Assembly: GCA_020848735.1 (NCBI GenBank)
Contig: JADLHO010000209.1
Span: forward strand, 6,086 to 30,085
Length of the DNA: 24,000 nt
From: Planctomycetota bacterium
GTDB taxonomy: Bacteria; Planctomycetota; UBA1135; UBA2386
Direction: 5' to 3'
Part shown: in pieces, positions 1 to 23,766 of the stretch
Position numbering within the stretch: the first letter of the stretch is position 1
How the letters are laid out: every line of letters begins with the position of its first letter
The notes under the pieces: generated by a model
Database searches by the model: none
Told to the model about the DNA's origin: nothing
What the model saw: the letters and a program-made list of their open reading frames with translations, nothing else
Program-made: the position numbers and the translations under genes

Positions 1-1
1 C

Positions 2-1240
2 GTGCTCGGCATGGTCATGGTCCCCGCCGGGCTCTTCCTCTACCGCAAGCGCCTGAACGAGCGCCTGGAGGCGCTCGCCGACAAGCCGGTGTCCCTCGCC
101 CGGGCCGTGGTGGTGCTGACCGCGATCAACTTCGCGGCGATCGGCACGCTCGGCTACACGGGCGCGCATTACATGAGCTCCGTGCAGTTCTGCGGCACGG
201 CCTGCCACGCGGCGATGGACCCGGAGTACGTCGCGTTCCAGCGCTCGCCGCACGCGCGCGTCGACTGCGTCGCCTGCCACGTCGCGCCGGGCACGAAGGG
301 CTACATCGAGGCGAAGCTCAACGGCACCAAGCAGCTCTACGGCTTCCTCACCGACAACTACCGCCGGCCGATCCCGACGCCCGTCGAGCACCTCGTGCCC
401 GCCAAGGACACCTGCGAGCGCTGCCACTGGCCCGAGAAGTACCTCGGCACCAAGCTCAAGGTGAAGTCGCACTACCGCGAGGACGAGAGCGTCAGCGGAT
501 TCACGAACGTGCTGCTGATGCGCACGGGCGGGACGCGCGCGGATGGGCAGACGGTCGGCATCCACTGGCACGTCAACCCCGACGTGACGATCGAGTACGT
601 CGCCAGCGACGAGAAGCGCACGCGCATCCCGTGGATCCGCGTGGTCCGCAAGGACGGCTCGGAGATGGTCTTCACCTCGCCCGGAGCCTCGCACGACGCG
701 CCGGCCGGCGAGCGGCGGAAGATGGACTGCAACGACTGCCACAACCGCTCGGCGCACGCCTTCGACCTGCCCGATGCGGCGCTCGACAACGCGCTCGCCG
801 CGGGCCTCATCCCGCGCGATCTGCCCTTCGTGAAGAAGTACGCGATGGAGGCGCTGACCACCGACTGGACGCGCGACAACGCGAAGGAGGGCATCCGCCA
901 GCACCTGCAGCAGGCCTACGCGAAGAGCGGCCAGCTCGACGAGACGACGCGCCAGAAGCTGGAGAAGGCGATCGAGGAGGTCGCGGCGATCTGGCTGCGC
1001 AACGTCTGGCCGGAGCGGAAGCTCGGTTGGAACGAGTATCCCGACCTCGCGACGCACGTCGGCTGCTTCCGCTGTCACGACGGCAAGCACGTGACGAGCA
1101 GCGGGCACGCGCTCTTCGGACCGGATCTCACGGCGAGCAGCAATCCGTCGCGCGATGCGAGCTGCGATCGCTGCCACGTCGTGCTCAGCGAGAACGAGGA
1201 GGACCCCGCGGTCCTCGAGTCCCTCGGGCTGCGGCGCTGA
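2..1240 (+). CDS. Membrane-anchored multiheme c-type cytochrome with a NapC/NirT-like N-terminal module (candidate inner-membrane quinol dehydrogenase, functionally analogous to CymA/ImcH). The 5' end probably lies outside the window.
   Basis: The frame is open to the window edge. Two hydrophobic helices (LGMVMVPAGLFLY, AVVVLTAINFAAIGTLGY) precede FCGTACH..RSPHARVDCVACHV..KLNGTKQLYGF..CERCH, which follows the spacing pattern I recall for NapC/NirT/NrfH proteins. Further motifs are CNDCH, CFRCH and CDRCH. Total: 5 CxxCH plus 1 CxxxCH. Stop TGA at 1238-1240. Third codon positions are mostly G/C. Confidence 0.8.
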   Translation: MLGMVMVPAGLFLYRKRLNERLEALADKPVSLARAVVVLTAINFAAIGTLGYTGAHYMSSVQFCGTACHAAMDPEYVAFQRSPHARVDCVACHVAPGTKGYIEAKLNGTKQLYGFLTDNYRRPIPTPVEHLVPAKDTCERCHWPEKYLGTKLKVKSHYREDESVSGFTNVLLMRTGGTRADGQTVGIHWHVNPDVTIEYVASDEKRTRIPWIRVVRKDGSEMVFTSPGASHDAPAGERRKMDCNDCHNRSAHAFDLPDAALDNALAAGLIPRDLPFVKKYAMEALTTDWTRDNAKEGIRQHLQQAYAKSGQLDETTRQKLEKAIEEVAAIWLRNVWPERKLGWNEYPDLATHVGCFRCHDGKHVTSSGHALFGPDLTASSNPSRDASCDRCHVVLSENEEDPAVLESLGLRR

Positions 1241-1251
1241 CGGGTTCACCG

Positions 1252-3087
1252 ATGACCAGAGCCCGGCGCCAGCTCAGCCTCGCGACGCGCGCGGTCGGCG
1301 CGGCGCTCCTCGCCCTGCCTTGCGCGCGGGCGCAGGAGCCCGAGCTCTTCGGCCCGCCGCCGCCGATCGGCGCGGCTGCGGCCGACCCCACGCGCGCCGT
1401 CGACGAGTCGGACGCGGCCGCGGCGTTCCTGCGGCGCAAGCTCGGCTTGAGCGCCGGGCCCGGCGGCTTCGGTCCGCCGATCCCGCCCGACTTCGTCCCG
1501 CCGGGACCGCCGCAGCCGCGCGTGCGGCCGCCGGTCCAGGATCCGAAGCCGGCCCCGCCGCCGCCACGCGTCGACGAGACCGACACGGCGCGCGGCGCCC
1601 TCGAGCGGATCATCCCGCGCGCCGAACCCGCGCGCGAAGCGCCCCTGCCGGTGGTGCCGCCGCTGCGCCCGGCGCCCGAGCTCCAGGACCCGGCGCGCCC
1701 GGCGACGGGTGAGCTGCAGGATCCGACGCGTCCCGTCGATCCGACGCAGCGCGCGGGTGAACTGCTCCAGCGCGTGCTGCCCGAGGCGAAGCCGCCGGAC
1801 TCGACGCTCGCGCCGGATCGACCGCAGCCAGAAGCCCCGCTCGATTGGACGCAGGCGGACGCGCGGTTTGCACGCGGGCGCGCGTCGCTGCGCTACCGCG
1901 GGCGCGAGGGCGACGGCGACTCGGATCACGACCTGATCGCCTACCTCGACCTCGATCTCGGCTCGGCCGAGCGCGACCCGATCAGCGCTCACGTGAGCGG
2001 GCGCGGCTATGCCGACCTCGACGGTCACGAGGACGACGGCAACTTCAACGGCCTCGACGAGACGCTCGGCGACGTCGTGCTCCGCCTCTACGAGGCGTAC
2101 CTCGACGTGCACGCGATCGACGAGCTCGAGGTGCTGCGCGTCGGCCGTCAGCCGCTCGTCGAGACGCCGGTGGAGCTCTCGTTCGACGGCCTGCGCGCCG
2201 AGTCGGCCCGCTTCTCCGCGATCGACGGCTTCGGCGGCGCCTACGTCGGCGTGCCGGTCCATCACTACGAGAGCTCGCACTCCGGCGATCTCGTCGTGGG
2301 CCTCAACGCGGGCGCGAGCCCCTGGGAAGGCGCGCGCCTCCGCGCCGACTTCATGCACCTCGAGGACGAGCTGCGCACGAGCTCGCCGACCGACGATCTC
2401 TTCGGGATCTCGCTGCGCCAGCGCCTGCTCGAGCATGCGACGCTCTTCGCGAAGCAGACCTGGCGCGACGGCGATCCGCGCGACTTCGTGCTGCGCGGCC
2501 GCGGCGAACTCGTCGACCTCGGCCTCGACCTGAACGCGGGCTACCGCGAACTGCTCACGGCGCAGCGCGCGCTCGTGACCGAGCTCGATCCCTTCCACGA
2601 CGTCTTGCTCGAGGAGCAGCCGTACCGACTCGCGGATCTCGAGCTCACGAAGGACCTCTCCGAGACGGTCTCGGTCGCGGTCGGCGGCGCCGTGCGGCGC
2701 CTCGCCGATCTCGGCGACGAGGGGCAGTTCAACCGCGAGTACGAACGCGTCTGGCTGCGGCCGATGCTCGACGATCTCTGGGTCGATGGGCTCTCGCTCG
2801 CCATCTCCGCCGAGGCCTGGCGCGCCGACGGCGATGCCGTCCGCAGCCTGGCCGGCGACCTGAGCTGGCGCGTCGACGACAGCCTGCGCTTCTCGCTCGG
2901 GACGGCCTACGACCTCTACAAGTACGACTCCTTCACCGGCATCGAGCGCGAGCACGTGCGCAGCTGGTATCTGCGCGTCGTCTCCCAGCCGCAGGCGCGG
3001 CTTCGCCTCGACGGCGGCTACGAGATCGAGTCCGCCGAAGGCGAGCACTTCCACCTGTTCCGCGTGGGCATCACATGGAGCTTCTGA
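1252..3087 (+). CDS. Secreted outer-membrane beta-barrel protein (611 aa) with a roughly 170-aa proline-rich N-terminal extension. Candidate porin component of the cytochrome cluster.
   Basis: ATG at 1252 lies 11 nt after the upstream stop and is in frame with tracked ORF 631..3087. Signal peptide MTRARRQLSLATRAVGAALLALPCARA/QE. A Pro-rich low-complexity segment is followed by about 400 aa with alternating-hydrophobic strand patterns. The LRLYEAYLDV...LRVGRQPL motif recalls alginate-export-type barrels. The C-terminus ...HLFRVGITWSF ends in an aromatic residue, typical of BAM substrates. The 631-1251 part of the tracked ORF overlaps the upstream cytochrome out of frame and is discounted. Confidence 0.7.
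   Translation: MTRARRQLSLATRAVGAALLALPCARAQEPELFGPPPPIGAAAADPTRAVDESDAAAAFLRRKLGLSAGPGGFGPPIPPDFVPPGPPQPRVRPPVQDPKPAPPPPRVDETDTARGALERIIPRAEPAREAPLPVVPPLRPAPELQDPARPATGELQDPTRPVDPTQRAGELLQRVLPEAKPPDSTLAPDRPQPEAPLDWTQADARFARGRASLRYRGREGDGDSDHDLIAYLDLDLGSAERDPISAHVSGRGYADLDGHEDDGNFNGLDETLGDVVLRLYEAYLDVHAIDELEVLRVGRQPLVETPVELSFDGLRAESARFSAIDGFGGAYVGVPVHHYESSHSGDLVVGLNAGASPWEGARLRADFMHLEDELRTSSPTDDLFGISLRQRLLEHATLFAKQTWRDGDPRDFVLRGRGELVDLGLDLNAGYRELLTAQRALVTELDPFHDVLLEEQPYRLADLELTKDLSETVSVAVGGAVRRLADLGDEGQFNREYERVWLRPMLDDLWVDGLSLAISAEAWRADGDAVRSLAGDLSWRVDDSLRFSLGTAYDLYKYDSFTGIEREHVRSWYLRVVSQPQARLRLDGGYEIESAEGEHFHLFRVGITWSF
1678..1743 (+). repeat. Two tandem imperfect 33-nt (11-codon) repeats inside the Pro-rich linker of the barrel gene
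   Basis: GAGCTCCAGGACCCGGCGCGCCCGGCGACGGGT (ELQDPARPATG, 1678-1710) is followed directly by GAGCTGCAGGATCCGACGCGTCCCGTCGATCCG (ELQDPTRPVDP, 1711-1743). A looser pair lies nearby: ERIIPRAEPA and QRVLPEAKPP. Confidence 0.7.
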
Positions 3088-4127
3088 TCGGGCCGAAGAG
3101 TCGACCGCGCGGGGCGCCGCGGCGGCGCGTGCTGGCGCTCTGGATCGGCGTTGCGCTCACCGGCCTCTCGGTGGCCGCGTGCCTCGGGCTCGCCGAGCCG
3201 CGTCGCAGCGAGCCGTCGTTCCCGCACGCCGTGCACCTGCAGGACAAGCAGCTCGACTGCGCGTTCTGTCACGGCACGGCGCGCTCCTCGGACGAGCCGG
3301 GCATGCCGCCGCCCGAACTCTGCACGACCTGCCACGAGCGCTTCGATCCGGAGAAGCCCCCGGAGCGGCGACTCGCGGCGTTCTACGGCGAGCGCGGTCG
3401 CTACCGAAAGGTCGCCGATGCGACGCTCCCCGAGGACATCCGCTTCTCGCATCGCCGGCACGTCACCGACGCGCGGCTCGATTGCATCGACTGCCACGGC
3501 GATGTGGCGGCGCAGACCGAGGTCCCGCTCGGCCCGCTGGTCGTGAAGGACGACTGCATGAGCTGCCACGAGCGGGTCGGCAAGCGCAACGAGTGCCGCG
3601 AGTGTCACGTCGGGATCGATCGCTCGACGCGGCCGCCGACCCACGACGCCGGCTTCGGCCGAGCCCACGGCGAGGTCTTCCGCCACGCGTCGACCCGCAG
3701 CGTCGACCGCTGCACCCTCTGCCACGACGAGGCGACGGGTTGCAGGGCCTGCCATGAGCGTGAGGCACCCCGCGATCACGACAACGGCTTCCGGCTCCGC
3801 GGTCACGGCCTCGTCGCCGCCTTGGACCGTGCGCGCTGCAGCACCTGCCACACGCGCGACTCCTGCACCGAGTGCCACCAGGACACCCGACCCCGCAGTC
3901 ACCGCGCCGGCTTCGGTGCACCGGCGAACCGGCACTGCGGCGGCTGCCACTCCTCGGCCGCCGAGGAGGGTTGCGCGGTCTGCCACCAGGGCACGCCGAG
4001 CCACGCGGCTGCCAACCCGCTGCCGGCCGACCACCATCCGGGCATGAACTGCAGGATGTGCCACGGCAACGGCGTCGTGCTCCGTCACGAGGACCCGGGT
4101 CTGAGCTGCACGAGCTGCCACCGCTGA
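3075..4127 (+). CDS. 13-heme c-type cytochrome (350 aa), c3/c7-like. Candidate periplasmic or barrel-inserted electron carrier, possibly lipid-anchored.
   Basis: ATG at 3075 lies within ATGGAGCTTCTGA, overlapping the barrel stop codon (3085-3087) by 13 nt. The N-terminus RRRVLALWIGVALTGLSVAAC is a signal with a lipobox-like VAAC. There are 13 CxxCH motifs: CAFCH, CTTCH, CIDCH, CMSCH, CRECH, CTLCH, CRACH, CSTCH, CTECH, CGGCH, CAVCH, CRMCH and CTSCH. FPHAVH..CAFCH and IRFSHRRH..CIDCH resemble c3/c7 units. The 1845-3074 part of the tracked ORF is an Arg-rich out-of-frame shadow of the barrel gene. Confidence 0.85.
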   Translation: MELLIGPKSRPRGAPRRRVLALWIGVALTGLSVAACLGLAEPRRSEPSFPHAVHLQDKQLDCAFCHGTARSSDEPGMPPPELCTTCHERFDPEKPPERRLAAFYGERGRYRKVADATLPEDIRFSHRRHVTDARLDCIDCHGDVAAQTEVPLGPLVVKDDCMSCHERVGKRNECRECHVGIDRSTRPPTHDAGFGRAHGEVFRHASTRSVDRCTLCHDEATGCRACHEREAPRDHDNGFRLRGHGLVAALDRARCSTCHTRDSCTECHQDTRPRSHRAGFGAPANRHCGGCHSSAAEEGCAVCHQGTPSHAAANPLPADHHPGMNCRMCHGNGVVLRHEDPGLSCTSCHR

Positions 4128-4204
4128 GGCTGGGCGCGCTCGGAGCGCTCGGCCTCGCGGATCGCGGAAGCGCCCTGAAGCAGGGTGGATTCGCCTGTCG
4201 TCCG

Positions 4205-4243
4205 GCAGCAGCGTTTTCTCGCGTGAGCGGAAAGACGCTGCCG
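4205..4243 (+). other. Long imperfect stem-loop with a GTGA (GNRA-type) tetraloop in the 180-nt spacer between the 13-heme gene and decaheme gene 1
   Basis: GCAGCGTTTTC (4208-4218) pairs with GAAAGACGCTGC (4230-4241) with one bulge. An inner CGC/GCG stem closes loop GTGA (4223-4226). No U-tract follows, so this is not a canonical intrinsic terminator. Confidence 0.3.
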
Positions 4244-4307
4244 CGTCCGTGATTCGACCGGAGACGTCCGTCACGGAAACGTCATCCGTCGCCGGAGCGG
4301 TTCGATC

Positions 4308-7088
4308 ATGAACGCCAAGGACCATCGCTCGACTGCGGCTCGCCATGCCCGCGGCGGGCTTCTCCACTGCTTCCTGCTCACCGGCCTGCTCTTCGGAGTC
4401 TCGGCCTGCAACGACAGCAGTGATCCCGCCCCGATCGGCGTCGCCGACGACCCGGTCGTCGGCACCTACGACGCCTTGCCCGGGGTCGTCGTCGCGATCC
4501 AGCGCGTCTACGGCGGCTCCGGCGCCGGCGGCGCGTTCCGCGTCGGCGACAAGCCGAAGGTGGACTTCACCATCGCGCGCAACGACGGGGAACCGCTCGA
4601 GCTCTCGCGCATGACGCGCGGGGCGATCATGGTCTCGGGTCCGACCGCGAACTACCAACGCGTCATCGCCTCGCAGTCCGACCTGATCGCGAACTCCGCG
4701 AAGACCGCGCTCGGCGCCTATACGTACACCTTCTCCACGGCGATCCCGGCGGCGTACCTCGCGCCGCTGAACGACAGCGCGCTGCTCAGCGACGGTGAGC
4801 TCACGGGCCAGGCGCTCGTCGCCGGCACCTACACGGTCGGCATCGAGCTCCGCAAGGACTACACGGTCGGCGAGACGACCTATCGCGACCCGGGCATCGC
4901 GACGGCGGACTTCCTCTTCGGCAGCGCGACGACGATCGCCGCGCGCGAAGTGGTGAAGAACGACAACTGCACGCAGTGCCACGGCGAGGTCCGCGCGCAC
5001 GGCAACAACCGCAATCACGTGCGCTCCTGCGTGCTCTGCCACACGGCGGGCGCCGAGGACGGCACGGGTGGCGGCGCGAGCGACGTCACGCCCGGCGCGA
5101 CGATCGACTTCGGCGTGATGATCCACAAGATCCACTCGGGGCGGCATCTGCCCTCGGTGCTCGGCGTCACCACGAACGCCGACGGCACGCGCAAGTACGA
5201 CTCGACCCCGCAGCCCTACCAGCTCATCGGCTTCCAGAACTCGGTGCACGACTACTCGGAAGTCAGCTTCCCGCAGTGGCCGAGCTTCTACACGGGCATG
5301 CCGCGCGACGCCGGTCACACGACGCTCTCGACGACGGCGCAGGGCCTCGAGAACACGATGCGCGCCGCGCCGGTCGGCTGCGCGAAGTGCCACGGCGATC
5401 CCGACGGCAGCGGCCCGCTCACCGCGCCGGCCCAGGGCGACGTGATCTTCACGAATCCGACCCGTCGTCTCTGCACCTCGTGCCATGACGACTGGGATCC
5501 GGCCAAGCCCTACCGCTCGAACACTTCGACGATGCCCGAGCAGAACGACGATGCGACCTGCAAGGATTGCCACGGCGTGAGCGGCGATCCGCTCGCCGTC
5601 GTCGATGCGCACCGTCACCCGCTGGTCGACCCGGCGCTGGCCACCGGTGTGAACTTCGACGTCACCGCGATCACCGACGTCGGCGGCAACGCCAACGGCA
5701 AGTTCGAACCCGGTGAGAAGGTCGGCATCACCTTCAGCGTGAAGGACGATGCGGGCAACGCGATCGCGGCCAGCAGCCTGAGCCGCATCGAGGTGGTCAT
5801 CAGCGGGCCGACGACGAACCCCCAGGCCCTGAACTACCAGCGCTTCGGCCAGGCCTTCTTCAGCGGCACCGGCCCCTACACGGTGAACATGCCGGCGATG
5901 TACTTCTACGAGCCGGTGGGCAGCTCGACGGCGGCGCTCGAGACCTTCACGACGGCGAACACGCCGCACTGGAACGTCACGAATGCGTTGACCTCGCTGC
6001 TGCGTCGCACGGGCACGGGTGCCGGCAGCACGCTGGCCGCCGCCGCCGCCGTGACGCAGAACTACATCGACGTCGCGCCGGGCACCGGCACGAGCTTCGC
6101 GAAGGACAACTACATCGTCATCGACGACGGCAACGTCAACCTGCGCGAGTACATGCCTATCCAGTGGGTCAACGGTGACCGCCTCTGGTTCGGTTCGCAG
6201 TTCCGCACGGGCTACAAGCCCAACCTCACCAAGGCCCACGCGGCGGGTGCCACGGTCACGATCGCGACGACGGCCACCGTGCCGACCGCGAGCTGGACCC
6301 TCGTCGGCGCCACCGGCGTGATCACGGAGACCGTCGAGTTCGGGACGGGCGAGATCCTCGCGACCTACACCGCCGACTGGGTGATCCCGGCCGTCTATCC
6401 GGGCGCGCTCGACGATTCGCCGGTGAATGGCCTCAACTGGGGCGACTGGACCGGCACGCCGCTGCTCGACGGCACCTACCTCTTCGACATGCACGGCGCC
6501 CGTAGCTTCACCGTGACCGCGGTGGGTGGCGAGGCGACGAGCTACACGGAGGGTGCCGACTCCACCGTGGTGCCGATGCTCTTCGGCGCCGCGACGGGCG
6601 TGGAGACCGTGGCGCGCATCGAGGGTGCCGCGACCTGCTACGCCTGCCACGACAACATCCAGTTCCACGGCGGTAGCCGCCGGAGCTGGGAGACCTGCAT
6701 CAGCTGCCACGGCACCGCCGGTGCCGAGAACACGCTGGTCTACGAGAACCAAAGCACAGGCAACCCGCTCGGCACGACCGTGGAGTTCCGCAGCTTCTTG
6801 CACCACGCCCACGCCGAGTTCCTGCCGATCACGCCGGGTGGTGTGATGGACTGCGCGAGCTGCCACGGTGCGAACAACACTGCATGGCAGGTTCCTGCCG
6901 ATCGCCAGCGGCCGAACCAGGTCACCCCGACCCGGAGCTGGATGATCGCGTGCAGCTCGTGCCACGACAGCTCGGCGGAGCGCGCGCACATCGACGCCAA
7001 CACGAGCGCTGCGGGCGCCGAGGCCTGCGCCATCTGCCACGGCAGCGGCGAGGACCTGCGCGTGGAGCACGTGCACGTCGTCCGCTGA
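4308..7088 (+). CDS. OmcA/MtrC-family decaheme c-type cytochrome lipoprotein, copy 1 (926 aa)
   Basis: ATG at 4308 with GGAG (4294-4297) 10 nt upstream. Lipoprotein signal ...LLTGLLFGVSAC. Ten CxxCH motifs are arranged as 5, then a 354-aa Cys-free insert, then 5. CTQCHGEVRAHGNNRNHVRSCVLCHTAG...IDFGVMIHKIH and YQLIGFQNSVHDYSEVSFPQWP parallel Shewanella OmcA as I recall it (CYTCH..LHGGRR..CASCHTA..FTYMIHAIH; YKIIGYGGKVIDYGKVHYPQKP). The second pentaheme unit repeats the pattern (CYACHDNIQFHGGSRR..CISCHGTAGAE..VEFRSFLHHAH). Confidence 0.9.
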   Translation: MNAKDHRSTAARHARGGLLHCFLLTGLLFGVSACNDSSDPAPIGVADDPVVGTYDALPGVVVAIQRVYGGSGAGGAFRVGDKPKVDFTIARNDGEPLELSRMTRGAIMVSGPTANYQRVIASQSDLIANSAKTALGAYTYTFSTAIPAAYLAPLNDSALLSDGELTGQALVAGTYTVGIELRKDYTVGETTYRDPGIATADFLFGSATTIAAREVVKNDNCTQCHGEVRAHGNNRNHVRSCVLCHTAGAEDGTGGGASDVTPGATIDFGVMIHKIHSGRHLPSVLGVTTNADGTRKYDSTPQPYQLIGFQNSVHDYSEVSFPQWPSFYTGMPRDAGHTTLSTTAQGLENTMRAAPVGCAKCHGDPDGSGPLTAPAQGDVIFTNPTRRLCTSCHDDWDPAKPYRSNTSTMPEQNDDATCKDCHGVSGDPLAVVDAHRHPLVDPALATGVNFDVTAITDVGGNANGKFEPGEKVGITFSVKDDAGNAIAASSLSRIEVVISGPTTNPQALNYQRFGQAFFSGTGPYTVNMPAMYFYEPVGSSTAALETFTTANTPHWNVTNALTSLLRRTGTGAGSTLAAAAAVTQNYIDVAPGTGTSFAKDNYIVIDDGNVNLREYMPIQWVNGDRLWFGSQFRTGYKPNLTKAHAAGATVTIATTATVPTASWTLVGATGVITETVEFGTGEILATYTADWVIPAVYPGALDDSPVNGLNWGDWTGTPLLDGTYLFDMHGARSFTVTAVGGEATSYTEGADSTVVPMLFGAATGVETVARIEGAATCYACHDNIQFHGGSRRSWETCISCHGTAGAENTLVYENQSTGNPLGTTVEFRSFLHHAHAEFLPITPGGVMDCASCHGANNTAWQVPADRQRPNQVTPTRSWMIACSSCHDSSAERAHIDANTSAAGAEACAICHGSGEDLRVEHVHVVR

Positions 7089-7147
7089 CGCCTCGCGACG
7101 ACGAGGCGTCTCGACACGGTCATCGTCCGCACCGCGGACGGTGACCG
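7087..7147 (+). terminator. Two consecutive GC-rich hairpins immediately after decaheme gene 1. Possible partial terminator, attenuator or mRNA-processing/stability element between the paralogs.
   Basis: Hairpin A: GACGCCTCG (7087-7095), loop CGACGA, CGAGGCGTC (7102-7110). It is a 9-bp perfect stem that overlaps the stop codon. Hairpin B: CGGTCATCGTCCGC (7117-7130), loop ACC, GCGGACGGTGACCG (7134-7147). It has 14 bp with one G-U pair and is followed by TCTGCATTCC, a weak U-tract. Confidence 0.45.
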
Positions 7148-7285
7148 TCTGCATTCCGAGAGCTTGCGACGCGCTGATCCCGAGTCCCTCGCGCCCTGGA
7201 TTCCGGTGCGCGATCCGTCCATCGTGCCGCACGCTCGTTCGCAGCGCGCTCGCGGGAGAGTGGCTGCTCCACGACCTGCTCGATC

Positions 7286-10123
7286 ATGAACGCCAAGGCA
7301 CTTCGCACGACCGCGCGGCGGTTCGCGCCCGCGGCTCTCCTCTCTTCCCTCCTGCTCTTCGGAGCATCGGCCTGCAACGACGGCAGTGACCCCGTGCCGA
7401 TCGGCGTGGCCGACGAGCCCATCGTCGGTGAGTACGACGCCCTGCCCGGCGTGCTCGTCACGATCCAACGCGTGCACGGCGGCAGCGGCCCCGGCGGCGC
7501 GTTCCGCGTCGGCGACAAGCCGAAGGTCGACTTCACGATCGCGCGCGACAGCGGCGACCCGCTCGAACTCGCGACCTTCGCGCGCGGCGCGATCATGGTC
7601 TCGGGTCCGACGGAGAACTACCAGCGCGTCATCGCCTCGCAGTCCGACGTGATCGCGAACTCGGTGAAGACGGCGCTCGGCGCCTACACCTACACCTTCT
7701 CGACGGCGATCCCGGCGAGCTACCTCGCCCCGCTGAACGACAGCGCGCTGATCACCGACGGCGAACTCACCGGCCAGGCCCTCGTCGCCGGCACCTACAC
7801 GGTCGGTCTCGAGTTCCGCAAGGACTACAAGATCGGCGACACGACCTACCGCGACCCCGGTGTCGCGACCGCCGACTTCCTCTTCGGCAGCGCGACGACG
7901 ATCGTGGCCCGCGAGGTGGTGAAGAACGAGAACTGCACGCAGTGCCACGGCGAGGTCCGCGCGCACGGCAACAACCGCAACCACGTGCGCAGCTGCGTGC
8001 TCTGCCACACGGCCGGTTCCGAGGACGGCACCGGTGGTGGCGCGAGCGATGCGACTCCGGGCGCGACGATCGACTTCCGCGTGATGATCCACAAGATCCA
8101 CGCGGGTGCGCATCTGCCCTCGGTGCTCGGCGTGACGACCAACGCCAACGGCACGCGCAAGTACGACGCGACGCCGCAGCCGTACCAGCTCATCGGCTTC
8201 CAGAACTCGGTGCACGACTACTCGCACGTCGGCTTCCCCGTCTGGCCGAGCCTCTTCACCCCGATGCCGCGCGACTCCGGCTACGCGGCGCTGAACTCGA
8301 CGCAGCAGGGTCTCGAGAACTCGATGCGCCAGGGGCCCGTCGCCTGCGCGAAGTGCCACGGCGATCCGGACGGCGCCGGTCCCATCCTGCCGCCGGCTCA
8401 GGGCGACCTGATCTACTCCCAGCCGACGCGCGCGGCCTGTGCCTCGTGCCACGACGACTGGCAGCCCGAGCTGCCCTACACGGCGAACACGCAGACGATG
8501 CCCGCGCAGGACGACGACGCCGCGTGCAAGAACTGCCACGCGCCGAGCGGTGATCCCCTCGCCGTCCTCGACGCGCACCGTCATCCCCTCACCGACACCA
8601 CCTTGGCGGCCGGGCTGCACTTCGACGTCACCGCGGTGACCGAGGTCGGGGGCAACTCCGACGGCAACTTCGACGCCGGCGAGAAGATCGGCGTCACGTT
8701 CTCGGTGAAGGACGCCGCGGGCAACGCGATCGCCGCGAGCACCCTGAGCCGCATCGAGATGGCGCTGCAGGGCCCGACGACGAACCCGAACATGGTGCAC
8801 CTGGTTCGGGCCGCGCCGGCCTACTTCAGCGGGACCGGCCCCTACACGTTCAACGTGCCGCAGCTCGTCTACCTCGAGGCCGTCGGCACCTCGAACAACT
8901 CGCTGCAGACCTTCAACACCGCGCGCTTCCCGCACTGGAACGTCACGGGTGCCGTGACCTCGCTCTGGATCCGCACCGCGACGGGGCTCGGCAGCACGCT
9001 CGCGGCGGCGGCGCCGGTGCTGCAGAACTACGTCGACGTCGCAGCGGGAGAAGGCTCGCGCTTCACGAACGGCGGCTACGTCGTCCTCGACGACGCCAAC
9101 GGCGGCCAGCGCGAGTTCCTGCGCGTGCAGTGGGTCGAGGGCGACCGCCTCTGGTTCTCCTCGCAGTACCGCCCGGACTTCCCGCCGCGCCTCAACCGCG
9201 CGCACGCCGCGGGCGCGACGGTCGACCCGGTCACGCTCACGGCCATTCCCGCCGCGAGCTACGCGCTCACCGCCGCCACCGGTGCGATCCAGGAGAACGT
9301 CGAATTCGGCGTCGGTGAGGTCATCGCCTCCTACACGACCGACTTCGTCATCCCGGCGCAGTACCCCGGCGCGCTCAACGAGTCGCCCGGCTTCGACTCG
9401 AGCTGGGGCGATTGGTCGCGGCTCGATCTCCAGTCGGGCACCTACTCGCTCGGGATGATGGGCGCGCGCGGCTTCACGGTGACCGCTTTCGGCGAGACGA
9501 CGAGCTACACCGAGGGCGCGAACGCCACGGTGTCGAATCTCCTCGTCGGCTCGGCGACCGACGTGAGCACCGTGGAGCGCATCGCCTCGGCCGACGCGTG
9601 CTACGCCTGTCACGAGGACATCCAGTTCCACGGCGGCAGCCGTCGCGGCTACGACACCTGCATCCAGTGCCACGGCACCGCGGGTGCGGAGGATGCGCCG
9701 CGCTACACGTACCCGAGCACGCAGGCCACGCCGGGCACGACGGTCGACTTCCGGACCATGCTGCACAAGATCCACGCCGGCAACATCCTCGATGCGGGCG
9801 CGAACTACGTGGTCACGGGCAACAGCGGGACGCCGCACACGTACGAGCACGTCGGCTTCCCCGTCACGCCCTCGGGCGTGATGCAGTGTGCGAGCTGCCA
9901 CGGCAGCAGCAACGATGCCTGGAAGCTGCCCGCGGATCGCAGCCATCCGGCGGGTGCGCTGCCGGCGCGTGCCTGGCGTGCGGCCTGCGGTTCCTGCCAC
10001 GACAGCGCGTCCGAGACGGCGCACATCGACGTGAACACGAGCCCGTCCGGCGCCGAGGCCTGCGCGATCTGTCACGGCTCCGGCGAGGAGAAGCGCGTCG
10101 AGCGCGTGCACATCCCGCGCTGA
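7286..10123 (+). CDS. OmcA/MtrC-family decaheme c-type cytochrome lipoprotein, copy 2 (945 aa)
   Basis: ATG at 7286 is preceded by the same TCGATC as copy 1. Lipoprotein signal ...LLLFGASAC. The ten CxxCH motifs are CTQCH, CVLCH, CAKCH, CASCH, CKNCH, CYACH, CIQCH, CASCH, CGSCH and CAICH. They have the same 5 + 353-aa insert + 5 layout and are co-linear with copy 1 throughout. Confidence 0.9.
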   Translation: MNAKALRTTARRFAPAALLSSLLLFGASACNDGSDPVPIGVADEPIVGEYDALPGVLVTIQRVHGGSGPGGAFRVGDKPKVDFTIARDSGDPLELATFARGAIMVSGPTENYQRVIASQSDVIANSVKTALGAYTYTFSTAIPASYLAPLNDSALITDGELTGQALVAGTYTVGLEFRKDYKIGDTTYRDPGVATADFLFGSATTIVAREVVKNENCTQCHGEVRAHGNNRNHVRSCVLCHTAGSEDGTGGGASDATPGATIDFRVMIHKIHAGAHLPSVLGVTTNANGTRKYDATPQPYQLIGFQNSVHDYSHVGFPVWPSLFTPMPRDSGYAALNSTQQGLENSMRQGPVACAKCHGDPDGAGPILPPAQGDLIYSQPTRAACASCHDDWQPELPYTANTQTMPAQDDDAACKNCHAPSGDPLAVLDAHRHPLTDTTLAAGLHFDVTAVTEVGGNSDGNFDAGEKIGVTFSVKDAAGNAIAASTLSRIEMALQGPTTNPNMVHLVRAAPAYFSGTGPYTFNVPQLVYLEAVGTSNNSLQTFNTARFPHWNVTGAVTSLWIRTATGLGSTLAAAAPVLQNYVDVAAGEGSRFTNGGYVVLDDANGGQREFLRVQWVEGDRLWFSSQYRPDFPPRLNRAHAAGATVDPVTLTAIPAASYALTAATGAIQENVEFGVGEVIASYTTDFVIPAQYPGALNESPGFDSSWGDWSRLDLQSGTYSLGMMGARGFTVTAFGETTSYTEGANATVSNLLVGSATDVSTVERIASADACYACHEDIQFHGGSRRGYDTCIQCHGTAGAEDAPRYTYPSTQATPGTTVDFRTMLHKIHAGNILDAGANYVVTGNSGTPHTYEHVGFPVTPSGVMQCASCHGSSNDAWKLPADRSHPAGALPARAWRAACGSCHDSASETAHIDVNTSPSGAEACAICHGSGEEKRVERVHIPR

Positions 10124-10168
10124 GAGCCCGAGCGAGAATCCGTCGTACGGGCTCCCCGGTGCTCGCTG

Positions 10169-10223
10169 GTGGCCGCAGCCGCGGCCACGCGGAGCTCGAG
10201 AGACGAACCGTCTCTCGAGCTCC
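10169..10223. terminator. Bidirectional terminator-like pair of perfect hairpins between convergent genes
   Basis: GTGGCCGC-AGCC-GCGGCCAC (10169-10188) has an 8-bp stem. GGAGCTCGAGAGACG-AAC-CGTCTCTCGAGCTCC (10191-10223) has a 15-bp perfect stem. Both lie in the 121-nt gap between the stop at 10123 (+) and the stop at 10245 (-). No clear U-tract is present, as is frequent in high-GC genomes. Confidence 0.6.
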
Positions 10224-10244
10224 GAGCCACGCCCGCGCGGGCCG

Positions 10245-11261
10245 TCAGCGCTTCTCGAGCTCGAGGATGAGCTGTGCGAGTTCGGGCGGCGGGCTGATCT
10301 CCAGCCTGCCGTCCAGCTCGGTGACGACGATGCGCTCGAAGCGCCCGTCGGGTCGCCGCCAGAAGAGCCCGCGATCGATCACGCTGCCCATCTGTGAGGC
10401 CGTGCGATCGACGAGCCGATGGAGCGCGGGGATGAGCGCCTTGATCCGGAGGTCCGCGAAGGGCCAGACGAAGATCGAGTCGCGCGTCGGCACGGCGACG
10501 ATCGCCCCGTGCTCCCCGAGCATCTCGGGATGCGCATCGAGATCGAGGACCGCCGCGCTGCCGTAGTACGAGCTCGCGGTGATCGCGTGGAGTTCGCCCA
10601 GCTCGCCGATCGGCTGCACGTCGATCCGCAGCTTGTCCTCCAGCTCCTGCCGCGTGTTCAGCAGGGCGAAGGCGAGCACCCCGCGTGGGTCCTGCTTCCA
10701 GCGCTCGAGCGAGCTGCTCGTGACGACGACCGCGGACTCGCCCGAGTCGATGAAGGCGAGGGTCACGGTGCCCGGCAGGTCGACCGCGCCCGCGAGGTCC
10801 TTCAGCTCGAGCCGGTACTCGGTGAGGTAGCTCTCGGGGTGGAGTCGCAGGCGCAGCCGCGCGCGGGCGGTCTGCCAGTCGAGGAGCTCGAGTTCGGCCA
10901 GGGCGTCGCGCATCGCGACCACGCGGCCGAGCTGCTCGGCGATGAGCTGCGGCCATTCGGCGCGCGGTGCCCCGGCACAGAGTTCCGCGAGGAGCCCGAG
11001 TTCGAACTCCGGCGTGCCCTGCTTCGCGCCGCGCACGCGCATCGCCCCGCCCGCCGTGAGCTCGGGAACGAGCTGCTGCGAGCGGAACCAGCGCTCGACC
11101 TCCGCCACGAACGCGAGGCGGGCGTCGGGCGCGAAGAGTCCATACCAGGCGGGCGTGCTCGGCTCCGGCTTCGGGCGGACGGCGACGACCTCGTCGTCGG
11201 AACAGGCGCTGCAGGCGAGCGCGAGCAGGCCGATCAGGGCTGGGCGTCGGTCGGGACTCAT
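10245..11261 (-). CDS. Hypothetical lipoprotein or secreted protein (338 aa), function unknown
   Basis: N-terminus MSPDRRPALIGLLALACSACSDDE is a signal with a lipobox-like LALAC/SAC. Amino-acid composition is balanced and third positions are G/C-rich. The opposite-strand ORF 10419..11282 is R/D/E/G-rich and looks like a shadow. I recognise no domain. Confidence 0.7.
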   Translation of the reverse strand: MSPDRRPALIGLLALACSACSDDEVVAVRPKPEPSTPAWYGLFAPDARLAFVAEVERWFRSQQLVPELTAGGAMRVRGAKQGTPEFELGLLAELCAGAPRAEWPQLIAEQLGRVVAMRDALAELELLDWQTARARLRLRLHPESYLTEYRLELKDLAGAVDLPGTVTLAFIDSGESAVVVTSSSLERWKQDPRGVLAFALLNTRQELEDKLRIDVQPIGELGELHAITASSYYGSAAVLDLDAHPEMLGEHGAIVAVPTRDSIFVWPFADLRIKALIPALHRLVDRTASQMGSVIDRGLFWRRPDGRFERIVVTELDGRLEISPPPELAQLILELEKR

Positions 11262-11343
11262 GCGGTGGGACAGGGACGATAACGACCGGGGACCGCGATC
11301 GGCTCAGCCCGGCGTCGGCTTGGCGCTCGCGCCGGGGGCCAGC

Positions 11344-13848: not shown

Positions 13849-14894
13849 TCCGGCACGCGGATCACGTCGACGCGCCAGACCCCCTCACCCTCGTCGTGCA
13901 TGTCGATGCGCACGGGGAGGAAGGCCTCGATCACGCGCGCGTTCGTCGTCGTGTGCGTCGTCGGACGGAGCGTGCGGAACGAGCCGCCGCCCGCGAGTGC
14001 GAACGGCAGGAGCAGCTGGTCGGCGAGGTGCGCGCCGACCGGGACCGGCGTGCGCAGGAAGGCCTTGGCGTCGCGGACGGCCTCGGCCGCGACGCGTTCG
14101 GCCGGCAGGCCGAGGCGCCCGAATGCGGCGATGACCTCGACGCCGGACCCGGTCTCGACGTCGATCGTGAGCACGTTGCCCGGACCGTTCTCCGCCATGA
14201 CCAGCGTGCAGCGGTCCTTCGCGATGCCGAGCTTCTGCTGCACGACCGCGAGCTCACGCTCCCCGACGTGTGCGGGCAGCCCCGCGACGATCGCCTGGGC
14301 GCGGATGGCGCGGAGTTCGCCGCGCGCGAGGATCGCGAGCGGGCGCAGCGGTCGGCCGCGCGTGCGCACGCGCAGCTCGCCGCCGCCGGCGGGGTGGAAG
14401 CCGTGACGGACGAGCTCCACGTCGAGTTCGGCGCCCATCGCGCGCAGCGCGGGCACGAAGCTCCGCGCGAGGAACTCGAAGGGCGGCGCGAGCGGGTTGT
14501 GCGTCCCGCCTTCGAGCACGAGCTCGCTCTCGCCTTCGGCGACCAGCAGCGCCGGCAGGACCGTCTGCGCGACCAGCGTGGTGCTCCCCGCGGACCCGAT
14601 CGCGCGCTGCCAGCGCCCCGCGAGGATGGTCTGCGGGATGAAGTCGATCTCCCGCGAGCCGACCTCGGCGCCGCTCACGCGCGCGGCGCCGATCGCCGCG
14701 GCGAGCTGCAGCGCCGCGAGGTGCTGGCGCATCAGACCCGGCTTCGCACGACCGGCGCGCACCGAATGCAGGTGGACCGGCCGGCCCGTGACGAGCGCCA
14801 GGGCGAGCGAGCTGCGCAGCACCTGACCGCCGCCTTCCCCGAGCGAGCCGTCGATGACGACGGCCGGGCGTGCGCTGTCGTTGCCTGGGTCCAT
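13845..14894 (-). CDS. rtcA: RNA 3'-terminal phosphate cyclase
   Basis: 349 aa starting MDPGNDSARPAVVIDGSLGEGGGQVLRSSLALALVTGRPV. It contains VGAHLADQLLLPFALAGGG, which matches the RtcA active-site His region as I recall it (E. coli VGEHLADQL). The start lies 2 nt after the rtcB stop. The upstream part of tracked ORF 13845..15752 is out of frame over rtcB. Confidence 0.9.
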   Translation of the reverse strand: MDPGNDSARPAVVIDGSLGEGGGQVLRSSLALALVTGRPVHLHSVRAGRAKPGLMRQHLAALQLAAAIGAARVSGAEVGSREIDFIPQTILAGRWQRAIGSAGSTTLVAQTVLPALLVAEGESELVLEGGTHNPLAPPFEFLARSFVPALRAMGAELDVELVRHGFHPAGGGELRVRTRGRPLRPLAILARGELRAIRAQAIVAGLPAHVGERELAVVQQKLGIAKDRCTLVMAENGPGNVLTIDVETGSGVEVIAAFGRLGLPAERVAAEAVRDAKAFLRTPVPVGAHLADQLLLPFALAGGGSFRTLRPTTHTTTNARVIEAFLPVRIDMHDEGEGVWRVDVIRVPD

Positions 14895-14896
14895 GG

Positions 14897-16120: not shown

Positions 16121-16223
16121 GGTGGCAGGACCTCGTGAGGCGTCTGATCGTGACGATTCGGATCGTGAGGAGCGGGCCGTCGCCGGGACAGGGCGTTCAC
16201 CGCGCGCTCCGCACGGCGCCGGG

Positions 16224-16239
16224 AGCACGCCGCGTGCCG
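16224..16239 (-). promoter_or_regulatory. Candidate sigma54 (-24/-12) promoter for rtcBA
   Basis: The minus-strand sequence is CGGCACGCGGCGTGCT, against consensus TGGCACG-N4-TTGCW. GG and GC have the correct 10-nt spacing. The site lies about 100 nt upstream of the rtcB ATG and is adjacent to the sigma54 activator gene rtcR. Confidence 0.5.
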
Positions 16240-16366
16240 TGGCGCACCCGCGGTCGGCGGATTGCCACAACGACTCTTCTCCCAGGGGCTTGCGGCGGAT
16301 GACGCCGGATGCGTGCCCGGGCTGGGGGCGCCAGGTCCTTATCCATGGAGATAGGATCCTAGCGCA

Positions 16367-19130: not shown

Positions 19131-19131
19131 G

Positions 19132-19157
19132 GCGTCCTCGGTTTGCAGCGAGGACGC
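19132..19157 (-). promoter_or_regulatory. Perfect 9-bp hairpin that sequesters the Shine-Dalgarno of the 367-aa gene. It may also act as a terminator or attenuator after the hydrolase gene.
   Basis: On the plus strand, GCGTCCTCG (19132-19140), loop GTTTGCAG, CGAGGACGC (19149-19157). On the mRNA, the 3' arm CGAGGACGC contains GAGGA and ends 1 nt before the ATG (19130). A third copy, GAGGACGC (mRNA sense, 19196-19189), overlaps the hydrolase stop codon. Confidence 0.4.
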
Positions 19158-19194
19158 AAGCGCAGGGTCGCGGCCGACAGGATTCTTCGCGTCC

Positions 19195-20730: not shown

Positions 20731-20765
20731 CGGGCGCGGATGCTATAGCCCGCCGCCGCCGCCCT

Positions 20766-23639: not shown

Positions 23640-23766
23640 GCCTCGCGGGCTTGGACCGATGCGGCGCGCCCACGGCGCCGCCATGGCGCAAACCCGCGGC
23701 AGCGCTCGGGACTTTCGCGGCGCTGCCGCCGCTTGATCGCGGTCCAGGTGCGCGGAAGATCCGCCC

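Follow-up and report, generated by a model that had tools for sequence, protein, structure and literature searches.

A candidate porin–cytochrome electron conduit of hybrid, non-MtrCAB architecture in an uncultured planctomycete

Described conduits and the planctomycete locus

In MtrCAB of Shewanella, whose relatives include MtoAB, PioAB and DmsEF, the cytochrome MtrA sits inside the barrel MtrB (~700 amino acids, 26 strands), MtrC serves as surface decahaem lipoprotein, and electrons enter from a NapC/NirT-superfamily quinol dehydrogenase in the inner membrane. The Pcc conduit of Geobacter (OmbB-OmaB-OmcB, with Ext) has the order barrel, inner cytochrome, lipoprotein outer cytochrome, carries 8 + 12 haems and relies on inner-membrane cytochromes of the ImcH or CbcL type; as outlined in PMC4282303 and PMC4245776, OmbB is a comparatively small barrel with ~20 predicted strands. 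Two further porin–cytochrome clusters, PCC3 and PCC4, have been predicted in Fe(II) oxidisers (He et al. 2017, PMC5566968). PCC3 combines low-complexity cytochromes of 21 and 34 haems (median) with a five-helix b-type inner-membrane protein, and PCC4 has no extracellular cytochrome (PMC5566968).

ImcH, CbcL and NapC/NrfH-type proteins are the three quinol dehydrogenase types of extracellular electron transfer in Geobacter and Shewanella (PMC6295460). ImcH is defined by three transmembrane (TM) helices, a CX3CH motif beside TM3 and five to nine CX2CH motifs; its haems are low-potential (−150 to −358 mV). Its homologues are regarded as quinol oxidases and have so far been reported only from Fe(III) reducers, and in published surveys imcH often lies beside other cytochrome genes, never beside mtrAB or mtoAB (PMC6295460).

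We analysed a stretch of 24,000 nucleotides (the window) from an uncultured planctomycete. The five genes at its left end, A to E, probably form one operon for a self-contained quinol-to-surface electron conduit of the porin–cytochrome kind:

2–1240, plus strand: gene A, 1 CxxxCH and 5 CxxCH, 5′ end lost at the window edge
1252–3087, plus strand: gene B, barrel protein
3075–3087, plus strand: overlap of B and C, 13 nt, ACATGGAGCTTCTGA, encoding T-W-S-F-stop of B and M-E-L-L of C
3075–4127, plus strand: gene C, 13-haem lipoprotein
4308–7088, plus strand: gene D, OmcA/MtrC-family decahaem lipoprotein, 926 aa
7286–10123, plus strand: gene E, OmcA/MtrC-family decahaem lipoprotein, 945 aa, tandem paralogue of D

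An earlier sequence-only reading had described five co-directional genes bearing 39 haem motifs. Recomputed intergenic distances (+11, −13, +180 and +197 nt) agree exactly with those it gave, and the motif total is borne out by a tally of six in A, 13 CxxCH in C and 10 CxxCH in each of D and E, the last two with a 5+5 layout. As a chance control, all 38 CxxCH motifs of positions 1–10123 fall within two coding frames, with none in the other four frames of that interval and none in any frame of 10124–24000. The spacing and motifs are far from chance. Of the neighbouring genes named in that reading, the window has those for the FG-GAP protein and for the TPR Ser/Thr kinase; no ECF sigma gene was found anywhere in it.

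The same reading had proposed a candidate porin–cytochrome conduit of hybrid, non-MtrCAB design. The proposal is supported by the families to which the proteins were assigned, by the predicted barrel and by the recurrence of the cassette. The B-C-D order indeed mirrors ombB-omaB-omcB and departs from mtrC-mtrA-mtrB, whereas the haem counts of the inner and outer cytochromes (13 + 10) differ from those of Pcc. Like PCC3 and PCC4, the locus is predicted from genomic data by the rule of a barrel next to multihaem cytochromes, but neither of those clusters has OmcA/MtrC-type or ImcH-type proteins.

Conservation of the cassette in Planctomycetota

The cassette is found again, as one unit, in numerous Planctomycetota, and every source organism is a metagenome-assembled genome (MAG). 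In loci L001–L015 the genes run 5+1 haems, barrel, 13 haems, 10 haems, and these haem counts are conserved across loci. Nine of ten partner cytochromes drawn from different loci match the OmcA/MtrC model TIGR03507. One partner is a canonical 689-aa member of that family (437 bits) and adjoins a barrel only 25% identical to B; even at this identity, barrel relatives are still accompanied by multihaem neighbours and by an MtrC-family gene. The hybrid architecture is not a one-off: OmcA/MtrC-type cytochromes regularly pair with a non-MtrB barrel. The upstream inner-membrane gene is ImcH-like in the window and in most other loci, CbcL-like in L017 (11 haems and an FdnI-type cytochrome b domain) and of the NapC/NrfH type in L019 (205 aa).

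The sharing of 13 nt between the stop of B and the start of C, which implies translational coupling, is conserved in nearly all loci. The overlap is also found in L002–L005, L009–L012, L014, L015 and L019, and the junction sequence in L006–L008 is identical to that of B and C. In L016 and L018 the barrel and 13-haem genes abut.

Components of the proposed route

Because A is truncated at the left window edge, ~68 of its codons are missing; the N-terminus is supplied by a 480-aa protein that is 99% identical (P0182). This full-length relative has three hydrophobic helices (residues 26–44, 56–74 and 98–121) rather than the two first reported for A. A NapC/NirT assignment holds in that the Pfam N-terminal region is matched at 36.9 bits (cut-off 24.1), but the architecture is of the ImcH type rather than plain NapC/NirT, with the number of TM helices, the CX3CH near TM3 and the CX2CH count all as in the published ImcH definition (PMC6295460). 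Like ImcH of G. sulfurreducens (GSU3259), A carries its atypical CX3CH immediately past TM3 and has NapC/NirT-like first haems. By positions taken from the published description of ImcH, four of its five conserved residues (H137, K173, Q179 and Y188) are identical in A, and the fifth, E127, is Ser. By architecture and these positions, A appears to be an ImcH-like inner-membrane multihaem quinol dehydrogenase. It differs from ImcH in having six haem motifs in 480 aa, against seven in ~507 aa, and in coming from a phylum that lacked an ImcH homologue in the 2018 survey. Its gene, moreover, adjoins presumed outer-membrane partner genes, a placement within the operon that sets the locus apart from both MtrCAB and Pcc.

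The translation of B divides into three parts, as had been seen before down to the ITWSF end:

1252–1332, plus strand: signal peptide, residues 1–27, predicted cleavage ARA|QE
1333–1866, plus strand: proline-rich extension, residues 28–205, probably periplasmic
1867–3087, plus strand: beta-barrel domain, residues 206–611, 22 predicted strands, short loops, TWSF beta-signal

An A-x-A/Q N-terminus equivalent to the signal end is present in all aligned homologues. Proline makes up 25% of residues 27–205, against 2.7% of the barrel, and the extension carries three copies of an amphipathic motif, D[EP][ST][DQ]xAxxxLxRx[LI], starting at residues 51, 108 and 163, two of which are kept in the homologue alignment. 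In the AlphaFold2 model the extension, two short helices apart, has pLDDT below 50, whereas the barrel, mostly above 90, has 22 long strands by DSSP, short loops and no plug domain. Among 181 family members, the extension reaches 120 aa or more in ~30%, F is the last residue in 163 and W stands at −3 in 137; most relatives are ~450 aa long with no additional domain. A plug-less 22-strand barrel whose relatives mostly lack an extra domain would be an open hole unless filled.

No Pfam or NCBIfam model matched B at E ≤ 0.1, no solved chain matched its family profile among PDB sequences, and Foldseek returned only generic barrels (TM 0.3–0.5). The earlier statement that no MtrB-sized barrel is present holds, and there is no MtrB match by HMM, PDB profile or Foldseek either. 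B thus appears, from sequence and model, to represent a previously undescribed outer-membrane barrel family outside MtrB/PioB, its ~405-aa barrel domain being comparatively small, as in OmbB.

The count of 13 CxxCH motifs reported for C stands. Its description as a plain periplasmic cytochrome does not, since the lipobox Cys36 is invariant in 60 homologues, which argues for a lipoprotein, unlike MtrA and the inner cytochromes of Pcc. In the same 60 homologues the 13 CxxCH motifs and 13 further His residues are invariant or nearly so, and the latter suffice for all-bis-His ligation. Haem density is high, at one per 24 aa of the mature protein. If the Cys were unacylated, the N-terminal helix could serve as an inner-membrane anchor.

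No likeness of C to MtrA or DmsE was found in family-model, PDB profile or Foldseek comparisons, in line with the earlier report that an MtrA-like decahaem is lacking. Instead, residues 47–217 align over the haem-binding core of ActA from Alternative Complex III (6f0k_A, E = 2.4e-12), with further ActA-type matches to 8k9e, 6btm and 6lod (E = 2e-12 to 1e-11 overall), and ActA chains were the only Foldseek matches to the model, which is of moderate confidence (pLDDT 75.6, 50–70 in the C-terminal third). C differs from ActA in its eight additional haems, its conserved lipobox, its coupling to an outer-membrane barrel and its lack of ActB-F neighbours. We propose that C consists of an ActA/QrcA-like pentahaem N-terminal module and eight further haems, and that it may act as a trans-barrel wire. 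By sequence and model, its likeness is to a subunit of an inner-membrane complex and to no known trans-barrel cytochrome, which counts against the conduit reading. Its proposed placement in the lumen of B comes from anatomy and from single-chain models, of which that of C is haem-free.

D and E, 67% identical over their full length, belong to the OmcA/MtrC family, as had been suggested from signature stretches, and carry lipoboxes (FGVSAC in D, FGASAC in E) along with their 10 CxxCH motifs; both exceed the TIGR03507 cut-off of 209.3 bits, with E at 238.0 bits and D narrowly at 213.0 bits. The pentahaem domain PF22113 (MtrC II/IV) occurs twice in each (135 bits across two stretches in D, 147 bits in E), and D matches MtrF (3pmq) with E = 1.2e-11. 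They share this family with MtrC rather than being of the OmcB type, the separation from OmbB/OmaB/OmcB/Ext being drawn from descriptions of those proteins. Both are ~250 aa longer than MtrC and OmcA and have no cysteine pair in domain III, points that, with the narrow score of D, weigh against the conduit reading; mature D has no Cys outside its haem motifs. From their family membership, D and E are proposed to be terminal cytochromes at the cell surface. To our knowledge, surface export of lipoproteins has not been characterised in Planctomycetota.

Electron flow and competing readings

In the proposed conduit, A would oxidise menaquinol on the periplasmic side of the inner membrane through its six haems. 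Electrons could then cross the periplasm via unlinked soluble cytochromes, no shuttle cytochrome being encoded within the window, or by direct contact aided by the proline-rich, motif-bearing tether of B. Made 1:1 with B by translational coupling, C would sit within the plug-less barrel, as its anatomy suggests, and relay electrons over the outer membrane much as MtrA does inside MtrB. At the cell surface, D and E would take over the electrons for delivery to acceptors that are insoluble or large, for example Fe(III)/Mn(IV) oxides, humics or electrodes. We infer these locations and the formation of a complex from the features described above.

Outward flow is moderately favoured because ImcH homologues have been reported only from Fe(III) reducers, because the best-characterised oxidising conduits, among them MtoAB and PioAB, have no MtrC-type surface cytochrome, and because the L001 cassette has an uptake [NiFe] hydrogenase 2 kb upstream. 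Direction is not given by sequence alone, a point on which we concur with the sequence-only reading. The same parts could run inward, drawing electrons from Fe(II), Mn(II) or reduced humics outside the cell, or from a cathode, and handing them on to periplasmic reductases or the quinone pool. Reducers and oxidisers alike possess porin–cytochrome modules, and NapC/CymA- and CbcL-type partners are known from both groups (PMC6295460), the isolate names of cassette-bearing MAGs point to wastewater or soil, and a molybdopterin oxidoreductase is encoded just downstream in L022. With the low haem potentials of ImcH and the quinol oxidase role ascribed to its homologues added to the three points above, we consider an uptake conduit unlikely, if a serious contender.

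Two other readings deny B the role of a wire housing. The cytochromes could form a periplasmic or inner-membrane-anchored chain, with B no more than a co-transcribed porin or exporter of an ordinary kind and no electrons crossing the outer membrane. The homology of the N-terminal half of C to ActA and QrcA, both from inner-membrane quinone-interacting complexes, fits such a chain; lipoprotein orientation is not readable from sequence, and AlgE and Occ porins are the best Foldseek matches of the barrel. However, the window encodes no ActB-F or Qrc partners, the 13-nt overlap is kept in relatives as distant as L019, and multihaem and MtrC-family neighbours persist beside barrels at 25% identity. 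The sequence-only reading had allowed for a barrel that is too narrow or an unrelated exporter; with 22 predicted strands against the 18 of AlgE and Occ, the barrel does not appear too narrow, its likeness to those two is of a generic barrel-to-barrel kind (TM 0.3–0.4), and with short loops and no plug it makes an implausible diffusion porin. We regard this arrangement as improbable. Less probable still is a secretion or assembly pore, akin to an usher, that exports cytochromes into extracellular filaments or matrix. In the fold search the usher pores FimD and PapC gave the top TM scores (0.42–0.53), and a handover role could be compatible with the tandem surface cytochromes and the proline-rich tether in the periplasm, but B has neither an usher plug nor N- or C-terminal usher domains, its strands number 22 rather than 24, and a chaperone gene is absent. 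D and E, moreover, are MtrC-type lipoproteins, a family with no known polymerisation, and C is strictly coupled 1:1 with the barrel.

If A to E do form a quinol-to-surface conduit, this uncultured planctomycete would possess a haem route from the inner membrane through an outer-membrane barrel to the cell surface, which may serve respiration of minerals or electrodes.

The cytochrome gene cluster and its surroundings

The cluster consists of five co-directional genes, A to E, separated by gaps of +11, -13, +180 and +197 nt, as a sequence-only reading had described when it proposed a porin-cytochrome electron conduit at this site. The genes and their downstream neighbours are as follows.

Genes of the cytochrome cluster and downstream features (window coordinates, strand, description)
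2-1240, +, gene A, ImcH-like protein with 5 CxxCH and 1 CxxxCH
1252-3087, +, gene B, barrel protein
3075-4127, +, gene C, cytochrome with 13 CxxCH
4308-7088, +, gene D, cytochrome with 10 CxxCH
7286-10123, +, gene E, cytochrome with 10 CxxCH
10245-11261, -, unannotated lipoprotein of 338 residues (LLALACSAC), directly downstream of E, no Pfam match
~11367-13848, +, TPR Ser/Thr kinase, following the lipoprotein gene
13845-18067, RNA-repair locus rtcA-rtcB/rtcR, unrelated to the cytochrome cluster
~13845-14900, -, rtcA, part of the RNA-repair locus
14897 to ~16033, -, rtcB (Pfam RtcB, 427 bits)
16367-18067, +, rtcR, sigma-54 activator, divergent to rtcA-rtcB

Counted on the translations, A to E carry 39 haem-attachment motifs, the number reported earlier. 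The G+C content of the window is ~71%. A six-frame count places 38 of 38 CxxCH motifs in the two coding frames of 1-10123 and none in the other four frames of this interval, and the remaining 14 kb has none in any of its six frames, so the cluster of haem motifs is real rather than an artefact of composition. A scan for promoters and terminators gave no signal exceeding background, and the gaps 5' of D and of E resemble each other only loosely. Exact look-ups of B and D returned no recorded contig, and genomic context was drawn from homologues.

The downstream genes, which also include a beta-lactamase-family gene and an FG-GAP repeat protein, have no obvious link to the cytochromes. Both the FG-GAP protein and the TPR kinase noticed previously are present, but the TRWSL-type ECF sigma factor said to accompany them was not found anywhere in the window, including beside the kinase. 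The candidate stretch preceding the kinase is antisense to the lipoprotein gene, and the one at 13845-14900 is rtcA. A genuine pair of ECF sigma factor and TPR kinase genes does occur near a distant cassette, at 15712-17329 of locus L019.

Proteins D and E are members of the OmcA/MtrC family by sequence and are predicted to reside at the cell surface. Both pass the curated cut-off (209.3 bits) of the NCBIfam model for the decahaem family, TIGR03507, with E scoring 238.0 bits and D clearing it by a thin margin at 213.0 bits, which bears out the original assignment. Each protein has the ten CxxCH motifs, grouped 5+5, the two pentahaem domains and the N-terminal lipoprotein signal with lipobox that mark the OmcA/MtrC architecture, in which a beta-rich domain lies between the pentahaem domains, and each contains two copies of the Pfam MtrC/MtrF domain II/IV, PF22113 (135 bits in D, 147 bits in E). 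The two are tandem paralogues, 67% identical, and the sole solved structure related to them by detectable sequence is MtrF (3pmq, E = 1.2e-11). They differ from Shewanella MtrC and OmcA in being ~250 residues longer, with the surplus placed between the two pentahaem domains; Pfam searches with the enlarged domain III and with domain I of D gave no significant match. In Shewanella MtrC and OmcA a disulfide-forming Cys pair in domain III gates flavin binding and reduction (PMC9973256). Mature D and E have no Cys outside the CxxCH motifs and thus lack this flavin-controlling pair.

Gene A is truncated at the left edge of the window, and its N-terminus is restored by a database protein of 480 residues (P0182) that is 99% identical to A. 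ImcH proteins have three N-terminal transmembrane helices, an atypical CX3CH by the membrane domain and five to nine CX2CH motifs (PMC6295460). P0182 agrees with this definition on all three points, having hydrophobic helices at 26-44, 56-74 and 98-121, a CX3CH at 132-137 directly after them, and then five CX2CH. The motif count given for A in the sequence-only reading therefore stands, but its description as a two-helix NapC/NirT-like cytochrome gives way to a three-helix protein of ImcH design. In Geobacter sulfurreducens ImcH, haem 1 is bound by H137 and, unusually, by Q179 on the distal side, and the quinol site has the conserved residues K173, Y188 and E127 (bioRxiv 10.1101/2023.05.03.539133). 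P0182 carries H137, K173, Q179 and Y188 at the ImcH positions and Ser at 127, an agreement of numbering and not of alignment. Counted from the haem 1 His, K is found at +36 in 107 of 113 relatives of A, Q at +42 in 106 and an aromatic residue at +51 in 102. There is no ImcH model among the NCBIfam matches to A. Membership of A in the ImcH family is well supported but indirect, through its architecture and through residue numbers of the G. sulfurreducens protein (GSU3259). No Planctomycetota appear in a 2018 census of ImcH homologues; RMG45522.1, the only Acidobacteria accession among the cluster members of A, has an accession series that looks later than that survey.

The barrel and its 13-haem partner

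In protein B a signal peptide is followed by ~180 residues with a proline content of 25% and by a C-terminal domain of ~405 residues ending in TWSF. No Pfam or NCBIfam model matched it at E <= 0.1, and a profile of its family matched no chain among the PDB sequences. An AlphaFold2 model built with 16 supplied homologues nevertheless yields a confident barrel, with pLDDT >90 for most barrel residues, to which DSSP assigns 22 long strands; the loops are short on either face, and a plug domain is lacking. Foldseek comparison of this model with the PDB recovers only generic barrels (AlgE, Occ and FimD/PapC) at TM scores of 0.3-0.5, and MtrB is missing from the best 50 matches. AlgE and Occ have 18 strands and FimD/PapC have 24.

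The standard barrel-radius relation (n = 22, shear ~24) gives a C-alpha diameter of ~4 nm for B. TonB-dependent transporters are of similar size and accommodate a plug of ~150 residues. Hence B as modelled is wide enough to hold a cytochrome; too narrow a barrel was among the findings that the sequence-only reading had named as fatal to its proposal. If empty, the modelled barrel would be a large open pore.

The proline-rich extension (window 1333-1866, residues 28-205) is predicted by AlphaFold2 to be disordered save for two short helices, and Pfam finds nothing significant in it. An amphipathic motif of 14 residues, D[EP][ST][DQ]xAxxxLxRx[LI], occurs in it three times, at residues 51, 108 and 163. 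A proline-rich extension of at least 120 residues occurs in ~30% of 181 family members, and it may act as a periplasmic tether or docking element. The C-terminus is more uniform, with a final F in 163 of 181 relatives and W at position -3 in 137. The barrel family at first seemed very rare, with 16 matches in a word-indexed search, but an exhaustive profile search overturned this impression by recovering representatives of 911 clusters (50% identity), of which 489 reach E <= 1e-30. The few members that bear a name are all called 'hypothetical protein'.

In an alignment of 60 homologues of C (mean column identity 44%), the lipobox Cys36, all 13 CxxCH motifs and 13 further His residues are invariant or nearly so, and these additional His residues suffice to give every haem bis-His ligation. 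The lipobox is found in each homologue inspected; the earlier reading had recognized those of D and E correctly but overlooked this one. Mature C has 24 residues per haem, whereas MtrA homologues have roughly 33 and are less dense (PMC5566968). Residues 47-217 are homologous to ActA, the pentahaem subunit of Alternative Complex III (6f0k_A, E = 2.4e-12; also 8k9e, 6btm and 6lod), with weaker similarity to QrcA. The AlphaFold2 model of C is of moderate quality (pLDDT 75.6), and Foldseek matches it to ActA chains only, with MtrA absent. Likewise, TIGR03508, the MtrA/DmsE family model, does not match C at E <= 0.1, and MtrA is found neither by sequence nor by fold, as anticipated by the claim that an MtrA-like decahaem protein is lacking. 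By position and haem density C would take the role of MtrA, yet it lies outside the MtrA family.

The stop of B and the start of C share the bases ACATGGAnnTTCTGA, which encode TWxF-stop for the barrel and, in a different frame, M-[D/E]-x-L for the cytochrome. This overlap is kept in nearly all related loci, including the distant L019, and in L016 and L018 the genes abut. Its retention across loci argues for translational coupling and for a predicted 1:1 complex of B and C. A database protein of 976 residues from L001 (P0014) had the appearance of a barrel-cytochrome fusion that could serve as Rosetta-stone evidence, but was rejected as a frameshift artefact enabled by the 13-nt overlap. At L001 11650-12130, on a contig shared with L013, the true barrel end (LTWNF-stop) lies in a different frame, just 5' of the cytochrome start MELLTRL.

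Recurrence and variation of the cassette

B itself is on record at NCBI as a protein of a 'Planctomycetes bacterium' MAG. Relatives of B are present in 11 genomes in a scan of 185,579 species genomes. Their labels are nine Planctomycetota, one Brocadiaceae, one unclassified and one distant Nitrospirales relative. The locus labelled 'uncultured candidatus Brocadiaceae bacterium' (L015) has 71% G+C and an organisation near-identical to that of L009, and its label looks unreliable. Across L001-L015 the order ImcH-like protein (5+1), barrel, 13-haem and 10-haem cytochrome recurs with haem counts unchanged.

The partner cytochromes match TIGR03507 in nine of ten related loci, and seven of these score above the cut-off. 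A partner of canonical size (689 residues) reaches 437 bits over the whole model and adjoins a barrel only 25% identical to B. Judged from these matches, the pairing of an OmcA/MtrC-type cytochrome with a non-MtrB barrel is old and regular rather than a one-off hybrid. The 'hybrid' architecture of the sequence-only reading is thus upheld in its composition, but is recurrent and not unique.

The gene upstream of the barrel is ImcH-like in most loci. In L017 this slot (4466-6688) holds a protein of CbcL architecture, with 11 CxxCH and an FdnI-type cytochrome b domain at its C-terminus, and in L019 (7106-7723, minus strand) a NapC/NrfH-type tetrahaem protein of 205 residues, the size of CymA. The ImcH, CbcL and NapC/NrfH (CymA) types are the three quinol dehydrogenase types known from extracellular electron transfer in Geobacter and Shewanella (PMC6295460). 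The gene content of these loci shows that the predicted inner-membrane quinol dehydrogenase of the cassette is modularly swapped, an interchange to be expected if the cassette connects an outer-membrane conduit with the quinone pool.

A second subtype of the cassette (L004, L012, L019, L021 and L022) has no ImcH-like gene upstream. Its barrels are 442-492 residues long, compared with 611 for B, and are followed by a cytochrome of ~350 residues (13 CxxCH where counted) and, in most loci, a larger MtrC-type protein. This subtype also carries a small c554-like tetrahaem cytochrome of 196-244 residues that could serve as a periplasmic shuttle. L004 and L005 have a conserved gene of 226 codons between the 13-haem and decahaem genes, whose product matches no family.

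The most distant barrel relatives, ~25-27% identical to B, are those of L021 (4724-7996) and L018 (4147-7431), the latter being labelled Nitrospirales. These clusters may represent an intermediate between Mtr-type clusters and the cassette. Their neighbour is a canonical-size MtrC/OmcA protein (689 residues, 437 bits on TIGR03507), and the L021 barrel also adjoins a 351-residue cytochrome with partial similarity to the MtrA/DmsE (72 bits) and GSU2203 (87 bits) families, both below cut-off. Other redox genes lie near some cassettes. In L001, genes for an uptake [NiFe] hydrogenase, its cytochrome b subunit and hyp maturation proteins (1-5751) lie 2 kb upstream of the cassette, and L022 has a molybdopterin oxidoreductase gene (10734-12170) directly downstream. 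These may be hints of electron donors or alternative partners.

A putative route across the outer membrane

We propose that A would oxidise menaquinol, and that electrons would then cross the periplasm. The 13 haems of C, placed inside barrel B as the anatomy of the pair suggests, would carry them over the outer membrane, and D and E would deliver them to acceptors outside the cell. Outward flow is the likelier direction, because the known ImcH homologues all come from Fe(III) reducers (PMC6295460), because characterised oxidising conduits are without an MtrC-type surface protein, and because an uptake hydrogenase adjoins the cassette in L001.

The cytochromes might instead form a purely periplasmic chain beside an unrelated porin, an arrangement in keeping with the nearest relative of C being a subunit of an inner-membrane complex. 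That explanation is unlikely because the B/C gene overlap is conserved and because cytochrome neighbours persist across the whole barrel family. Kinship of C with Alternative Complex III is also confined to its N-terminal ActA-like module, and ActB-F, including the molybdopterin-like and NrfD-like subunits, are encoded neither in the window nor beside the cassette in related loci. Our tentative proposal, which we place somewhat on the doubtful side of even, is that a structurally distinct class of conduit across the outer membrane has the B/C pair as its core. Under this proposal, a lipoprotein haem wire derived from an ActA module may plug a 22-strand barrel of a family without known relatives, with OmcA/MtrC-type surface cytochromes that may dock on C and B. 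The B/C module may combine interchangeably with quinol dehydrogenases of the ImcH, CbcL or CymA type, and in the subtype found in the window the proline-rich tether of B might help to span the planctomycete periplasm instead of a dedicated soluble shuttle.

MtrB and PioB barrels have ~700 residues and 26 strands. B, with 22 predicted strands in ~405 residues, falls outside their family, and the absence of an MtrB-sized barrel claimed earlier holds by model, by profile and among the best 50 Foldseek matches. C differs from its counterparts in MtrAB, PioAB and MtoAB in lacking TIGR03508 membership and in having 13 haems rather than ten. The Geobacter Pcc conduit OmbB-OmaB-OmcB shares its gene order of barrel, periplasmic cytochrome and lipoprotein cytochrome (PMC4282303) with B-C-D/E, and the resemblance noted previously can be read directly from the sequence. 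By their descriptions the two systems are set apart by haem number, with OmaB an octahaem and OmcB a dodecahaem protein against 13 in C and 10 in D and E, and also by the OmcA/MtrC family of the outer cytochromes in the window. Searches of the literature found the cassette described nowhere; surveys name Planctomycetota 'PCCs' and 'novel multihaem clusters' only generically.

Porin-cytochrome conduits in general are already known, and the predicted cassette differs from them in four respects: its barrel belongs to a family without known relatives, its putative inner wire is a lipoprotein with an ActA-derived module, its MtrC-family outer component is separated from MtrAB, and its candidate quinol oxidase is encoded within the operon. 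To our knowledge, experimental tests exist for only two such designs, Mtr and Geobacter Pcc/Ext, and a solved structure for MtrCAB only. If our proposal is correct, the cassette would represent a third, distinct in both barrel family and inner wire, and OmcA/MtrC surface cytochromes would not be bound to MtrAB. Docking of these cytochromes on C and B would further imply that MtrC-family proteins can be transferred between barrels of unrelated families. With its proposed route from quinol oxidase to surface cytochrome encoded in one 10-kb operon, the system is small enough to be a good candidate for expression in other hosts and for bioelectrochemical engineering. For the non-anammox Planctomycetota, it would add a capacity to respire minerals or electrodes that has gone unrecognised, widening the range of respiratory extracellular electron transfer.
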